A stretch of DNA of 13,677 nt from IMG/VR virus record IMGVR_UViG_2703718850_000012, positions 1 to 13,677 of that record. One strand, 5' to 3'. This stretch comes from a virus. Taxonomy: Duplodnaviria; Heunggongvirae; Uroviricota; Caudoviricetes. Made by a program: the position numbers. The first letter of the stretch is position 1. Each line of letters opens with the position of its first letter. Positions 3,001-9,000 of this stretch are shown in pieces.

Positions 3001-6000
3001 ACCCAGCCAGATTGCGGAGCGGATGCGTGGGCGAACATTTGCGAATTTTGATCGATTCAGGGAGGCATTTTGGGCAGAAGTGGCAAACGATGCTGATTTG
3101 TCAAGACAGTTCAGAGCACACAACCTCACGAACATTCGCAAAGGACGTTCACCATTCACAAGGGAAGTGGATCGAGTTGGTGGGAGGGAACGTTACGAAA
3201 TACACCATATTAAACCTATAAGTGAGGGGGGCGAAGTTTATAACGTTGATAATATGGGTATCACAACACCAAAGCGGCATATAGAAATTCACAGGGGAAA
3301 ATAACGTGAAAACAATAAACGACTATACTGAAAATGAATTCTTAGATCTTGTTCGAAAAATATGTAATGCAGAAGGAACAGAAAAAGAAAGCGAGCAGTT
3401 AGTCAGAGAATTCAGGCGCCTCTCTGAACATCCATCAGGCTCTGATCTAATTTTTTATCCAGAGAACGGAAAAGACGATAGTCCGGAAGCCATCGTACAA
3501 GAAGTTAAAACCTGGCGTTTAGCTAATGGCAAATCCAGTTTTAAAGATGCGTAATTTAGCCCCCTTCGGGGGCTTTTTTGTTGGTCAGGTGTCACGGGTC
3601 CTTTCCAGAATCTTGAGCGCCGGGGGTACGGATACGCGCAATTCTTAACTGTTTATGAAAATTTTTCGGGAAAAGTCAGATCCGTTCTTCTTCTCTGTAA
3701 CTCATTGTTTAATCGTAAAATCATCAGAAAAAGAAAGGATCTGACAGTGGTCATTTTGGGCCAAAAATAACGTTATCAGATCCTTTCTCAGTTTTGTTCA
3801 ATAATTGCGCGGTTGTCACTCACCTTTCTGTTGCCGTAACTTCTCCGGCACGTTTCCGGTTGTTTCCATCAGATAGTCTTCCAGAATGCGGGGTAGGTTA
3901 TCGGCAGTTTTAGCGCACGCATTACAGGCTCGTGCTGTTTCCTTCCTCAGGCCATCGAGCATTGCCGGAGTCATCCCGGGGAACTGCCTTTGCATTGTGA
4001 GCGGCAAACTATCCATGATCGAAGAAATCTGACTCGCCAGTCCACGAAGCGCACAGAGTACGAACTCAGTATCTATAACTTCCCCTGTCTCTCTGGCGTT
4101 CTTCAGTTCCTGTCCGTCCGCCTGTGCTTTGGTGAGACGGTAGCGTTCGTACTCTGTTGTGCCTGGCTGTAAATCTGATTCACCAGCAGCACGTAAATCA
4201 TCAAGCTCCCTGCGGAGTTTTTCGTTTTCGATCTCCTTCTCCCTCTGTACATACCATTCGATCACCTGTGCAGAGTCGAAAGTCACCTCCACACCTTTTC
4301 CGCCACCAGATACATGGGGAAGCCCTTGCATCTGCCAGCGCTCAATTGTGCGCGGATCAACACCGAAAATCTCCGCCAGTCTCTTTTTGTTAACATTCAT
4401 TTATCAAATCCTCATCAAAAACCACCTCCGACATGAAACGCCTGAAAAACGGGATTTTCCGGCGTTATGGTGTCGTATGTTTATGATAGTTAGTTGCAAT
4501 AAAAACATAATGTTACATGCAAGAAGTACCGACATGCTTTTTCCCTGAAAAATTTTTATAAATAGTGAAAATCTGCGCGTCTGCCGCCCCGTGGTGTTTC
4601 AGATCCCCGGAAAGGACCCGTGAAAAGTCACCGCCCCTGTCCGGCAGTGTAAGAGGTGTTTTTTAGGGAGCCCCTTTTCAGCCCATAAAACCGGAAAAAT
4701 CACGGTTTTTTAGCCTGCTGGTGGAGTGAGTTTTTTTAACGATGCCAGCAATGGCGCGGGGTTGGCGTGGTTTTGTCTGATAGGTTTTATCTATCAAGTC
4801 TGTGCGCACCTTCCCAAAAAAAAGTTTTCGAACCTGCGGCGATGTGAAGAAGGGTTGGGCGGCGGTCCCTGACAGCCAGGACTACAGGGATTTGATCCAC
4901 CCCTCCCATTGATGATAACCGTTATCAATTACTCCACCAGCCAGCAGAACGGTAACAGTACATCGGGCTACCCGTTCCGGTACTGGTTAACCCTGACTTT
5001 CGCCATCAGCGTGACGTGATGGTGACATGTCGTGACACATCGTGACGTTACCACCAGCGCAACGGAGAACGGCAAATCGCAGACAAAAAAAACCCCCGTG
5101 ATTACGGGGCGGAAGGATAATAACCATCAGGAAATGTAAGCTACCACAAAGCAAATAACCATGAACAACGATTAAGAGTACGGAGAATAACCGCTCGTTC
5201 ACGCCGGATAATGCCATGAGGTCAGGGGGATGGCAACGTAGGGACCATAACGCATCACCACCAGCCTTGTGGGTTATCGTGATGCGGCATGATTCAGTGG
5301 TGAACAAAAAACAGGCGTTTTCGACACCAGGAATTTTTTTAACCTTCATTATCAATAAATTGCGCTGGTGGTGATGACCGATAAAAATGCGAAAATTTGG
5401 CGATTTCCGCGCGTCCGTCGCCTCGCGGTAAGGCCACCCCTCTGGAAGGACCCGTAAAAAAAGCCGGAGTGTTCCGGCTTCGTCTGTGTATCTGCGTATA
5501 TGCAGGATTTTATGTTATCCGCCCACGGGAGTGATGGTCATTTTTCAGGATAATATCCGGCATCACTGATTATTGCCCGGCTGCTTTGGATAGTTCCGCC
5601 AGACGGATTTACCCGCGTCTTCCATCCCCATCACCGCATGAGTGCGGTTTACAGCCTCTTTCAGCGCCCCGAAGTTATCCGCCATAACGGGTGGGCGTGC
5701 TGCCTTACGGATACATTCCGCGCGACGCTTTGCCGCCTGTTCGCGCTCCTTATCGGTGTTCACCAGTTGCATAACCTCAGCCCACCGCGCCGTCGCTCTT
5801 CGGTACAGCCCTTTAGCCTCCAGTTCTTCCGCTTTGCTGTCACGAATCATGCGCCTGTCTTCTCCTTTGCTGTCCGGCGTTTACGCTTCTCATTCAGCAT
5901 CATCAGCCGCGTTTCTGCGTCCTGTTGTTCCTGTGATGTCACCTCGCCACATGGCTGGCCTTTCAGGTCGTAGCGTACCCCACCAGCCATTAAGGCGCGG

Positions 6001-9000
6001 TAATAGCGTGGAGACTGCGCATAAGATGCCAGCGTCGCACGTAATGCCCCCGGCCCGAATGCCAGCCCCCTGACGGCGATATCCTGCATCAGGTCGTCGA
6101 ATATCCCCACCTTCAGCGGTTTTGGCGCTTCCCGGCTGAATAAGTCAGGCCACATCTCAGTAAGGCGGTTAACGCGTCTGCGGTTTTTGCGCTGGCGTTT
6201 GGTCATATGCCGCCACGGTGTCGCCCCTGTGGGCTTCTGCTGTGCGTTCTGATTGCCGGGTATCACTTTATGCGCCGATGTGGTTTTATCCTGCTGCTGT
6301 ATCGCCTGCGTCGTTTTCTGCAGCGTGCCGTAAATGCCTTTCGGTTTTCGGTTAATGGTCAGCTTTGTCATGCTTTCCCCTGTAATAACTCTGTTCGCTG
6401 TTGTGAATTAAAACGGTATGTTGTCCTCGTACGGATCATCATTACCCGCCTGTTGTTTTGCCCTGTTCAGCGCGTCAGTAGCCTGGCCCTGTTGACCTTT
6501 TTTGCCGCCCGGTCGCGCCGTTCGCGCACTGATTACGCTGTCTGCGATAACCTGCCAGCCCTGCCGCGTTTCGCCGTTCTGGCCTGTCCACTGGCTTACC
6601 TGCATGTTACCCGCCACGCTCACCAGTTCGCCTTTGTGGTGTCTGGCCAGTGCGTCGGCCTGTCTGCCAAACGCCAGGACGGATAACCACATCGTCGCCG
6701 TTCCGTCATCGGCCTGGCTGCACGGCAGGGGAACCGCCATACTCGCCATCGCCATTTGTGTCCCTTTGCTGGTGGTCTTTAACTGCGGGTCAGCCACCAG
6801 CCGCCCGTAAGCCGCTATCTGTGCTGTCATGCTGTCTGCTCTCCGGTTTTAATGTTGATGGTTGTCACCTGTTCCGATTCGGCAATCTCCCGTTCTGTCA
6901 GCGTGGCAAAGTTTGCTGCCGCCGTTGCCATGAATGCGCTTATCAGTTCGGGGTGTGCTTTCGCGTATCCTTCCCCCGTGTTGCGGTCGATGATTTTTAT
7001 CGCCACTCTCAGCCAGTGCTCTGTAAGGTCAATGGCGCGGTAGTGTGGTTGTTTGCGGTTTGACTTCATAGTTCAGATCTCGATTTTTCGTATATATATA
7101 TACAAAACACGTCGTCCCAGTTGTCCCGGTTGTCCCACTTAATGTTAACTTGTTGATTTTATTAAAACACACTCCGCAAAGTGGGACGACATTTACCGAT
7201 TTTGGGACGACATGAGGGGTTTTGCGTTGTCCCACCCTTCGGCACGGTAAAAAATACGTGTCGTGTCGTCCCAAAATGCCGCAATGTTGTCCCAAAATGC
7301 CTGAATGTTGTCCCGCTGTTGTCCCACTTTTTGCAAGTGAAATCTATAAAATTCAATATGTTACGCTTGCTTATTGCTTTCTGGGACGACTGGGACAACA
7401 TATTGTTACCGCCTACACGCGAGATTAATCATTTTCAGCATCGTAGTCCTGCGTCAGCAAAAGGCCATACACTCTTAGCCGCGCCCCTTTCAGGTGTTTT
7501 AGCCGTGGTGTCCTGATTTGCCATCCTCGCCCGCTGGCTGGTTTTCTCAGCATTCCGGCTTCATGAAGGGTTTTTGCTACGGCATCCTTGTTAAATCCCT
7601 TCGCCACATGTGAGCTAAACGGCTCCGGCAGCACGTAAAACAAAACAGGCTCGTCATAACGCCCGTCGCTTTCCCTGTAGCCGTACAGTTCTGAAATCGG
7701 CAGGCTGGCAGGGTCATAATTGACAGGGGCGAACCTGCTCAGGCCATAGGCCGCAAGAAACGCCTCAGCCTGTTCAATAATCTGCCTGTGTTCCCTGTTG
7801 CCCGTGCCGAACTCCTTCACCCAGGCATTAAAATTATGCTGAATGGCATCGCGGCATTCCTGCTCATCCCAGCCAGTCACATGACCGGAAAGCACAAGTG
7901 CGGCCTCCAGTATGGCGAAACGCTCACCCACGCGGTGGACCTGCTCGCCGTAGCTCTCCGGTATCAGGTTGCGCCACCGTTCACGGCATTCCCTTACTGT
8001 ATCCTTTGCCTCCTGCTGGTGGTCTGCCAGCCATTTAACCCACTCACGCCCCGCCGCCCCGTGATTTGCTGTCCAGGCATCCTTTAACGCGTCTGCGTGC
8101 GCCTTTCCGGTGCTGTATTCGTGAAATTGTGTGGCTTTTTCCATTGGCACGTTAAGCAGGCGGACAAGCTGCCCCGCCTTGACTTTTATCCCCTCCGTTT
8201 TGAGGAATGTCTCAACGTCCATTTCTCCGGTACTGATTGCCACCGTTCGCCAGTGTTTTATCTCCCTGTTGCCGCCGTCCTTCGCCCCCTGCAATTTACC
8301 GGAACCGTTAAACAGCGTATAAGCCGATGTGGACACCTCCCGCGCGTTTCCGGCCTGGCCTATTTCATCCAGTGGTAACAGTCCGTCGTTGTGTGCCTCT
8401 GCCTCGTTGGCGATACCTAACGCCGTTCCGTACCAGGTCAGCCGTTGCGCGTCCGGCTCTCCCCATAAACTTGATGCTATGTTCTGTGTGGTGGTTTTCC
8501 CTGCCGATGACTGTTCGAAAAGATGTACCCCGAAGCCGTCAGCGCCCACCAGCCCGATTAATGGTGCGGATAACGATACCGCCACTCCCAGCATCATGGA
8601 CGGATTACCACCAGCCAGTCGCGCCACACTGTCGCGCCAGCCCTCCGCCGTTCCTGTCACGGAATAACCATTAACGGCAGCCGTTTTTCCGGTAAACAGG
8701 ACTGGCTTTTCGCAATCACCAATGACCGAACCATCCGGCATGATGTACGCGCCAAAATGCCAGCCCGTTGTTGTGCTTAACTGCCATTCCTCATGGCTTC
8801 CGCTTAACTGCATCCAGTCAGCCAGGACAGCCCTGTATTTACCGTTGGTTGTCACGTTCAAACCGTGGTCTTTCAGCAACCGCCAGCCGTCACGGTCGCC
8901 AATGCCACCACACGGGATCGCCATTGTGATGACTTCATGATTTGCTAATTTTTTCCAGCGCATCACGCGGTAATGCTCTTTGCCGATTGTTCCCGTTCCC

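Follow-up and report, generated by a model that had tools for sequence, protein, structure and literature searches.

A FinO-domain gene in the probable post-origin operon of an enterobacterial phage satellite

The closest described counterpart of the locus presented here is the module of Sp7/OI-51 in Escherichia coli O157, in which ECs1586, ECs1587 and pchE are transcribed as one polycistronic mRNA (PMC7369912). Its transcription start site lies 10 nt upstream of ECs1586, in the origin spacer, according to published RNA-seq and 5′RACE. The O157 operon is expressed at a basal level and drops 3–7-fold upon SOS/prophage induction; the SOS inducer SMX-TM lowers the activity of its promoter. PchE has little effect on the locus LEE, represses curli (csgD) and stimulates flagella (PMC6265319, PMC7369912). 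Of the PerC-like proteins encoded on other phage-inducible chromosomal islands (PICIs), the EcCIMP1 homologue represses LEE1, and LEE1 fusions did not respond to those of EDL933 and CFT073 (PMC11773190).

The window, i.e., the whole stretch of 13,677 nt analysed here, contains a module of this known kind, homologous to ECs1586–ssb–pchE of E. coli O157. What is new is an additional FinO-type RNA-chaperone gene. The four genes probably constitute the 'post-origin' operon of an enterobacterial PICI.

Architecture of the island and its operon

PICIs measure about 10–18 kb and have defined att sites. The island exhibits the enterobacterial PICI gene set, consisting of int, alpA, an RgdR-like gene (DUF4222), a DUF927 primase gene, the origin, the four-gene operon, cos and a Nu1-like terS. 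Integrase, AlpA and primase/rep, followed by the iteron origin, share one orientation, and virion structural and lysis genes are absent. The Nu1-like TerS is the sole packaging gene and is accompanied by a cos site of the phage-21 type. One end of the window falls inside the island; close relatives are situated between yejO and tRNA-Pro/yejM. Gene content, iterons, and TerS plus cos thus support the satellite identity assumed in the preliminary description. Herein, the operon has the replication origin on one side and the packaging site on the other.

All four genes are encoded on the minus strand. The first (6827–7069) specifies an 80-aa protein of unknown function (phrog_1231; E = 1.6e-47; 72% identity to ECs1586) that gave no match in Pfam and NCBIfam searches. 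Its AlphaFold2 model is a two-helix hairpin of low confidence (pLDDT 69), for which a Foldseek search against the PDB returned no match. The second gene (6408–6830) encodes an SSB of 140 aa with 69% identity to ECs1587, scoring 58.3 bits against PF00436 (cut-off 26, E = 8.5e-16) and 61.9 against TIGR00621 (cut-off 53.95). It consists of an OB fold, a short linker and the C-terminal acidic tip ...DDPYEDNIPF. Both the fold and the ...IPF tip, a recruiter of the host replisome and repair machinery, are retained, so the SSB probably coats single-stranded DNA at the neighbouring origin while the satellite replicates. A FinO/ProQ-domain protein of 174 aa (5847–6371; PF04352 and AlphaFold2 fold) and a PerC-family protein of the PchE type (5563–5850; 95 aa; PF06069; 61% identity to PchE of O157 Sakai) complete the operon. 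The SSB, FinO-domain and PerC-family assignments had been made beforehand, and in the domain search all three proteins exceed the Pfam gathering scores. PADLOC assigns none of the four proteins to a known defence system.

Two of the three gene junctions are ATGA start/stop overlaps (6827–6830 and 5847–5850). The SSB–FinO junction is a 36-nt spacer that holds a GGGGA Shine-Dalgarno motif and has no overlap; the claim of four translationally coupled genes hence holds for the two overlaps and not for this third junction. Compared with homologues from other elements, dN/dS ranges from 0.10 to 0.38 across all four genes (0.31–0.38 for the first gene, about 0.1 for ssb and 0.20–0.34 for the FinO gene), which indicates that they are real and under purifying selection. 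Co-directional, tightly spaced genes and one terminator give the locus the anatomy of a single transcription unit, the transcript itself being mapped in the FinO-less O157 homologue only. A four-gene operon (5563–7069) beside the origin is thus likely, given its minus-strand ORFs, their spacing, the terminator and the polycistronic nature of the homologous O157 module (PMC7369912).

The replication origin (7106–7401) consists of 12 iterons and flanking AT-rich stretches. The core GTYGTCCC occurs 12 times in both orientations, clustered at 7111–7399, against a chance expectation of 0.84 copies for the window as a whole. This cluster sits directly downstream of the DUF927 primase-helicase gene and directly upstream of the operon, which agrees with the earlier placement of the operon next to the origin. 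Relatives carry an iteron origin at the same position with other iteron sequences.

Upstream of the operon, a scan for the sigma-70 consensus gave no promoter. The putative promoter and leader (7070–7136, minus strand) were placed by homology to the mapped O157 start site, the iteron sequence of the homologue being different: the TA run at 7091–7102 would serve as the −10 element, and three tandem iterons (7111–7136) would lie over the −35 region. In Sp7, the sequence upstream of ECs1586 reads three iterons, TGTTT and TATATATAT, and the same arrangement is found here despite the differing iteron sequence. In two further loci, L018 and L004, the module begins with the FinO gene, and tandem iterons lie about 20 nt upstream of it. 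No convincing terminator separates the primase gene from the operon, and transcription may also read through from the upstream alpA/primase unit.

At the other end, an intrinsic terminator (5456–5481; minus-strand sequence GAAGCCGGAacacUCCGGCUUUUUUU) is located 81 nt past the perC stop codon. Its 9-bp GC-rich stem, 4-nt loop and U7 tail confirm the strong terminator that had been described. A simple terminator scan overlooked this hairpin, probably by counting the U tract partly as an extension of the stem. Most relatives, whether or not they have a FinO gene, end their module with the same GCCGGA/TCCGGC stem, its loop being variable; two relatives carry a similar CCGGG stem instead. Directly after the terminator, a cos-like core (5365–5455, minus strand) forms the boundary of the module; it aligns with the second cos core of the window and with what follows the terminator in relatives, at least three of which show a cos-like core at this position. 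The sequence of locus L014 contains GGGCGGCGACCT, which we take to be the 12-nt cohesive end of lambda.

Transcription would start at a promoter within the origin's last three iterons, pass through the 80-aa gene, ssb, the FinO gene and the perC-like gene, and end at the hairpin/U7 terminator that abuts cos. By analogy with the O157 homologue, the operon would be basally 'on' while the island is integrated and would go down once SOS or helper induction starts replication. This decrease would most likely be caused by the primase/initiator occupying the iterons that overlap the promoter, i.e., by promoter occlusion.

The FinO-domain protein and its distribution

The FinO-like protein consists of a disordered, basic and Q-rich N terminus (residues 1–55) and a FinO domain (residues 58–171); a ProQ-type C-terminal domain is absent. 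PF04352 matches residues 64–168 with 84.5 bits (cut-off 27, E = 6.1e-24). Sequence matches in the PDB comprise the ProQ N-terminal domain (1.2e-12), FinO (1.3e-11), RocC (1e-7) and also NMB1681. The AlphaFold2 model reaches block-mean pLDDT values of about 86–96 for residues 61–170, and its top 26 Foldseek matches in the PDB are all FinO-domain structures, the best being NMB1681, FinO and RocC (TM to target about 0.8, maximum 0.84; rmsd 2.1–2.4 Å). R122-Y123 and R133 align with ProQ Tyr70/Arg80 in HMMER and are invariant or nearly so in 25 homologues; from published structures, we take the two ProQ residues to form the pocket that holds the RNA 3′ end. The NCBIfam equivalog scores are below the cut-off for both FinO (NF010317; 69.1 versus 136) and ProQ (NF003434; 59.4 versus 127), which makes the protein a member of the FinO family and neither FinO nor ProQ proper. 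Identity to FinO/ProQ is only about 35% over about 95 residues. The protein would most likely act as an RNA chaperone on its own, recognising hairpins of the terminator type that carry a 3′ U tail. Its effect would be to stabilise RNAs of the island or the host, or to bring about their pairing, possibly including its own operon mRNA via the terminator.

No RNA partner was detected by Rfam, a terminator scan or comparative checks. Rfam found no sRNA family in the whole window at permissive E-values, and only a sub-threshold fluoride-riboswitch match elsewhere. A minus-strand sRNA candidate with a promoter-like sequence (5236–5208) and a strong terminator (5109–5085) is not linked to the FinO gene, as it occurs in only 28 genomes, compared with 327 that carry the FinO gene, and changes position or orientation along with the terS/cos module. 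The operon terminator is not diagnostic for a FinO-specific ligand, since the same stem is present in FinO-less modules such as that of Sp7. An antisense terminator-like hairpin in the 5′ region of the primase gene (9398–9420, plus strand) is attributed to chance because it is absent even from a 97%-identical relative.

These searches bear on the idea that the FinO protein and an unrecognised antisense RNA set the replication or copy number of the satellite together with SSB and the origin, in the manner of the plasmid systems FopA–Inc RNA/repZ or FinO–FinP/traJ. The FinO gene does adjoin the origin, and a review ties the FinO family to replication, transfer and genome integrity (PMC9977716). 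However, no Rfam family was matched in the window, and the lone antisense hairpin is the unconserved one in the primase gene. The genomic contexts, for which a single-protein contig search had given one locus and which were gathered via protein clusters and their contigs, bear on it in both directions. The FinO gene follows ssb, either directly (36–49-nt spacer) or after perC, in five of the six island contexts and in nine of the 11 FinO-carrying island loci, including the most abundant variant. It is also found directly after the iterons without ssb (L018 and L004) and downstream of perC (L014); at L011–13 it lies near microcin V genes, outside any island. Moreover, it occupies 374 places versus 1789 for SSB-carrying modules, most of which lack it, so the FinO gene is dispensable for replication. 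Control of replication or copy number by the FinO protein is thus considered unlikely.

The same distribution could be read as that of a moron, i.e., a recently acquired and functionally unconnected gene in a variable accessory slot without a role in satellite biology. The FinO gene is patchy: of the complete E. coli genomes, about 6% carry it, compared with about 28% for the SSB allele family, and it is present in about a fifth of the SSB-carrying modules. Its order relative to perC varies, identities are mosaic (the FinO protein of L004 is 89% identical, its PerC only 59%), and the neighbouring slot holds pyocin/immunity cargo. Against this, all six island contexts place the gene in the post-origin operon and not in the cargo region, purifying selection on it is evident among pairs down to 53% identity, and the island-borne proteins form a distinct clade, to which plasmid homologues are only about 35% identical. 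A mere passenger is therefore quite unlikely. FinO and PerC are no fixed functional pair, given that order and content vary and most SSB modules have no FinO gene.

We tentatively propose, as a possible if somewhat unlikely role, that the satellite FinO proteins form a clade of their own among RNA chaperones, are expressed from the resident island and recognise terminator hairpins in RNAs of the host or the helper phage, e.g., lambdoid antisense RNAs or ProQ ligands, thereby controlling helper induction or host physiology post-transcriptionally. If true, this would be the first RNA-chaperone–based interaction of a satellite with its helper or host in Enterobacteria. The mentions of ProQ/FinO genes found in the literature are annotation entries only (PMC13612085 for PICIs, PMC13230959 for episomal satellites). 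A large proportion of E. coli genomes harbours PICIs, and a FinO chaperone would add a post-transcriptional layer to an operon that already holds one host-reprogramming regulator (PchE). The gene also offers a compact, genetically tractable case of FinO function on a mobile element without an obvious plasmid-style antisense RNA.

The PerC-like protein and virulence

The PerC-like protein matches PF06069 over its full length (profile positions 1–89 of 90; 122.3 bits versus 22.6; E = 1e-35). Residues 6–52 show a weak, sub-threshold similarity to the ANR family, and plasmid-borne homologues are at most 65% identical. By sequence, it belongs to the PchE type and not to the LEE-activating PchA/B/C/PerC type. 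The protein would be a small regulator of the PchE type that acts on host genes for surface structures and motility, with curli going down and flagella up, and not a LEE activator; the PchE phenotypes may not transfer, since identity is only 61% and members of the PerC family differ in activity. 'PerC family' in an annotation is herein not to be taken as 'LEE activator'.

This assignment bears on a reading along the lines of the preliminary description, by which the induced satellite would use its FinO-like and PerC-like proteins as weapons to reprogram genes of the helper phage or virulence genes of the host, PerC activating regulators of the ler/LEE type. The PerC and FinO domains are indeed present, LEE1 is activated by PerC, PchA, PchB and PchC, and activation of LEE has also been stated for some PerC homologues of PICIs (PMC6092414). 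Phage-derived sRNAs are bound by ProQ-type proteins (PMC9977716). The satellite carries a lambdoid cos site and hence has lambdoid phages as helpers. Such phages carry antisense RNAs. However, PchE, the closest characterised homologue, barely affects LEE and acts on curli and flagella, the EDL933 and CFT073 homologues leave LEE1 unaffected, that of EcCIMP1 represses it, and the window contains neither LEE nor helper sequence. The homologous operon is repressed upon SOS/prophage induction, and nothing points to a control of helper genes. The domains thus stand, the virulence and helper part is not supported, and the reading as a whole is very unlikely.

Comparison with known systems

Within the FinO-domain family (FinO, ProQ N-terminal domain, RocC, NMB1681 and FopA), the island protein shares PF04352, the fold as seen in NMB1681, FinO and RocC, and the RY/Arg pocket. 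With FinO of F-like plasmids it also shares the basic, disordered N-terminal extension; in contrast to FinO, no cognate antisense RNA was found for it. It differs from ProQ by lacking the linker and C-terminal domain, and from both by being encoded on a phage satellite instead of a plasmid or the core chromosome.

PerC of the EPEC EAF plasmid and PchA/B/C of EHEC are activators of ler/LEE1 and share the full-length PF06069 domain with the island protein, which is nearest to the group-3 protein PchE (csgD down, flagella up).

Sp7/O-island 51 (PICI EcCIEDL933) resembles the island in that its module immediately follows the primase gene and iteron origin, keeps the order 80-aa gene, ssb, perC-like gene (protein identities of 72/69/61%), and has the same terminator stem type and the same upstream layout of three iterons and a TA run. 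It differs by the missing FinO-domain gene, an ssb–pchE gap of 10 nt and another iteron sequence. The RgdR homologue of the island has PGD aligned at the position of the RGD motif in ECs1581 of Sp7. Furthermore, Sp7 is a capsid-encoding PICI, whereas the island contributes only Nu1-like TerS and cos.

The Gram-negative PICIs EcCICFT073, EcCIEDL933 and EcCIMP1 show the same order of int, alpA, (RgdR-like gene), primase and iteron origin. According to the literature, perC alleles are common among PICI genes, and in published accounts of PICIs perC figures as an accessory virulence gene. Compared with these three PICIs, the island described here packages via its own Nu1-like TerS and a cos site of the phage-21 type.

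Organization and boundaries of the operon

The operon at 5563–7069 on the minus strand consists of four ORFs, encoding an 80-aa protein (6827–7069), a 140-aa SSB (6408–6830), a 174-aa FinO/ProQ-domain protein (5847–6371), and a 95-aa PerC-family protein (5563–5850), with the last three also identified by profile searches. The four-gene arrangement of the preliminary description is confirmed by its ORFs, domains, terminator, and iterons. The proposed translational coupling of all four genes holds for two of the three junctions: ATGA overlaps connect the first gene to the second (6827–6830) and the third to the fourth (5847–5850), whereas ssb and the FinO-domain gene are separated by a 36-nt spacer containing a GGGGA ribosome-binding site. 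The strong terminator is present on the minus strand at 5456–5481 as a GC-rich hairpin with a 9-bp stem and a U7 tail, 81 nt beyond the perC stop. A consensus terminator scan did not pick up this hairpin, probably because the stem can take in some of the U tract. The operon also lies next to the origin as described, since 12 GTYGTCCC iterons in both orientations are found directly upstream across 7111–7399 (0.84 expected in the whole window), between the operon and the DUF927 primase-helicase gene (7425–9557).

A cos-like core (5365–5455, minus strand) immediately follows the terminator and marks the module boundary. It aligns with a second cos core upstream of the small terminase gene terS and, in relatives, with the sequence after the terminator; that of locus L014 includes GGGCGGCGACCT, the lambda cohesive end. 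The second core (4414–4620, minus strand) has the same orientation, ~800 bp away, and lies just upstream of the Nu1-like terS; its identity to the cos segment annotated in phage 21 is 74–75%. Between the two cores, GTCAC(G) repeats (gtcacgatgtgtcacgacatgtcaccatcacgtcacg) cluster at ~5010–5046 (minus strand) and may represent a terminase or regulator binding array. In L001, the closest relative, the terS module has the reverse orientation with respect to the operon.

The island and its cargo

On the operon strand, the window further encodes a tyrosine integrase (12436–13677), an AlpA-type regulator (11704–11910), a DUF4222 protein (9554–9853) just upstream of the primase-helicase, and, downstream of the operon, the Nu1-type small terminase (3816–4400). 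Capsid, tail, and lysis genes are absent from the window. Together with this absence, the set of int, alpA, DUF4222, primase, terS, and cos gives the organization typical of a Gram-negative phage-inducible chromosomal island (PICI). In Escherichia coli chromosomes, relatives are located between yejO and tRNA-Pro/yejM, the best being 96.6% identical across the operon region; the entire window occurs in none of the complete genomes.

Several features accompany this layout. The DUF4222 protein is a homologue of RgdR/ECs1581 (70% identity, 99 aa), a regulator encoded on O-island 51 that acts on type III secretion and motility, and in a pairwise alignment its PGD lies opposite the RGD motif of ECs1581, which is important for activity according to the original RgdR paper. 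The cargo at 1125–3554 (plus strand) comprises a PAAR-motif protein, a 563-aa toxin-like protein, and, ahead of a strong terminator, a colicin/pyocin immunity protein. The 563-aa protein has Pyocin_S and colicin/pyocin DNase domains along with a subthreshold PAAR match; the cargo, which E. coli strain C5 also carries, resembles a toxin–immunity pair of T6SS or bacteriocin type on a phage satellite. The region between small DUF genes and alpA (10299–11699) contains an implausibly long 466-aa minus-strand ORF. In the equivalent region, relatives annotate an Icd-like cell-division inhibitor, with which a plus-strand YlcI/YnfO-family gene and small ORFs overlap convergently; these end at two strong plus-strand terminators (11525–11544 and 11645–11672). 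The whole may represent an immunity or antisense region.

The FinO-domain protein

The predicted FinO domain was recovered by PF04352 (E = 6.1e-24) and by the structural model, in which a basic, Q-rich segment predicted to be disordered (residues 1–55) precedes a confident FinO fold (residues 58–171). The top 26 PDB structural matches are all NMB1681, FinO, RocC (including its RNA-bound complex), or a Legionella ProQ homologue. R122-Y123 and R133 align with the RY/R residues of ProQ and are conserved among 25 homologues. The protein shares only ~35% identity with plasmid FinO, as with ProQ, and falls below the NCBIfam cut-offs for both. By family membership, it most likely binds hairpin/U-tail RNA 3′ ends. 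Almost all homologues at 53–96% identity belong to Escherichia, Shigella, Salmonella, or Citrobacter. At the megablast level, 327 of the 5426 complete E. coli genomes carry the gene, at 374 places that are without exception chromosomal; the SSB allele family is present at 1789 places in 1512 genomes. Its dN/dS of 0.20–0.34 indicates purifying selection.

The gene order varies among relatives. The order 80-aa–SSB–FinO–PerC is found in the window and L001, and in L003 (E. coli C5) with a longer, unrelated ORF in first position. SSB–FinO–PerC occurs in Salmonella (L016, L017) and Citrobacter (L010), 85-aa–SSB–PerC–FinO in L014 and L015, FinO–PerC directly after the iterons in L018 and L004, and FinO alone near microcin V genes in L011–L013. 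The most abundant cluster (L005–L009) carries SSB–FinO, a 138-aa ORF, and a frameshifted PerC remnant. The primase type also differs between FinO-carrying loci (DUF927, RepA helicase, or D5_N/DUF5906). Comparison of these architectures and primase types thus marks the FinO gene as an optional, shuffled part of the post-origin operon.

In L003, an otherwise near-identical island (96–99% in terS, perC, FinO, and ssb), the segment 9814–12193 has a RepA-family helicase, different repeats of GGGGA type, and a 257-aa ORF instead of the DUF927 primase, iterons, and 80-aa gene (6827–9557 in the window); the replication module is cleanly swapped while the SSB–FinO–PerC genes are retained. In L005–L009 (7479–8126), the 138-aa ORF, of unassigned function, overlaps the FinO gene and is missing from the L009 gene calls; the PerC homologue is split over two frames, as a pseudogene or by programmed frameshift, and beyond it lie three large unannotated proteins (565–918 aa).

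Rfam, terminator and promoter scans, and conservation checks of the window yielded no convincing RNA partner for the FinO protein, and no Rfam family matched in the window. A promoter-like TTGCCA-17-TG-CATTAT and a strong terminator (CCCCGTAATCACGGGG + U8) ~100 nt further downstream outline a possible ~115-nt sRNA at 5236–5085 (minus strand); as a partner it was rejected, since it is part of the terS/cos module and no more than 28 complete E. coli genomes carry the region. Within the primase gene, an antisense hairpin lacks conservation. In shape, the operon terminator would suit a FinO-domain ligand, but Sp7, the FinO-less E. coli O157:H7 element, has it just as well. In the satellite literature searched, the FinO-domain gene appears only as an annotation (PMC13612085, PMC13230959). 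It is a real module variant, uncharacterized as far as this search shows, and would gain interest should the protein turn out to target RNAs of the helper or the host.

Comparison with the O157 module

The SSB domain was matched by PF00436 (E = 8.5e-16) and, above cut-off, by TIGR00621. The protein keeps the C terminus ...DDPYEDNIPF, corresponding to the tip by which E. coli SSB interacts with host proteins. Its gene is the most conserved of the module (dN/dS ~0.1), and the protein probably takes part in replicating the satellite from the neighboring origin. For the 80-aa protein, Pfam, NCBIfam, and PHROG profiles gave PHROG 1231, a family without known function, as the sole match; its model, a helical hairpin (pLDDT 69), has no structural match. 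None of the four operon proteins matches a PADLOC defence model.

The PerC domain is confirmed over the full length by PF06069 (E = 1e-35), and 61% identity assigns the protein to the PchE type. With PF04352 and PF06069 both matched, the refutation that the preliminary description tied to missing PerC or FinO hits does not arise. PerC alleles have been noted as common in PICIs (PMC6092414). PchE influences LEE little; without a need for Ler, it lowers csgD/curli expression and biofilm formation, and it raises flhDC/fliC expression and motility (PMC6265319, PMC7369912). On LEE1 fusions, the PerC-like genes of EcCIEDL933 (Sp7) and EcCICFT073 have no effect, and the EcCIMP1 PerC homologue, which has ANR-like similarity, represses LEE1 (PMC11773190). 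The window protein also shows weak ANR similarity (E = 0.003, below cut-off). Because its closest type is PchE and these PICI homologues are neutral or repressive on LEE1, the earlier reading as an activator of virulence regulators is not the best one. A second PerC-family gene, 41% identical to the operon copy, lies within the cargo of L001 (5093–5395, minus strand); therefore, two PerC paralogues can share one island.

By RNA-seq and 5′RACE, Andreozzi and Uhlich found ECs1586–ECs1587–pchE to form a polycistronic RNA starting at a G 10 nt upstream of ECs1586; the promoter fusion is on without induction and up to threefold lower with the SOS inducer SMX-TM, and qRT-PCR gave 6–7-fold decreases (PMC7369912, PMC6265319). 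In the window and Sp7 alike, three tandem iterons, differing in sequence, are followed by TGTTT, a TA run, and the first start codon; in relatives lacking the first two genes, tandem iterons lie ~20 nt upstream of the FinO gene. Because this arrangement is common to Sp7, a putative promoter overlapping the iterons is placed at ~7085–7136 by homology to the O157 mapping. Initiator binding to these iterons on induction would account for the published SOS repression. A consensus sigma-70 scan gave no match at this putative promoter, and read-through from the primase gene is another possible transcript source.

Basal expression reduced under an SOS inducer speaks against the suggested control of helper genes; by analogy, the homologue's published behavior points to an operon that is expressed basally in the resident state and reprograms the host instead of controlling a helper or activating LEE. 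In Sp7/OI-51 (EcCIEDL933) of O157:H7 Sakai, the primase gene and iteron spacer are followed by ECs1586 (83 aa), ECs1587 (SSB), and pchE, whose products match the first (72% identity), second (69%), and fourth (61%) proteins of the window. The operon is a known kind of module, a PICI post-origin operon homologous to ECs1586–ssb–pchE, from which it departs by its FinO-domain gene.
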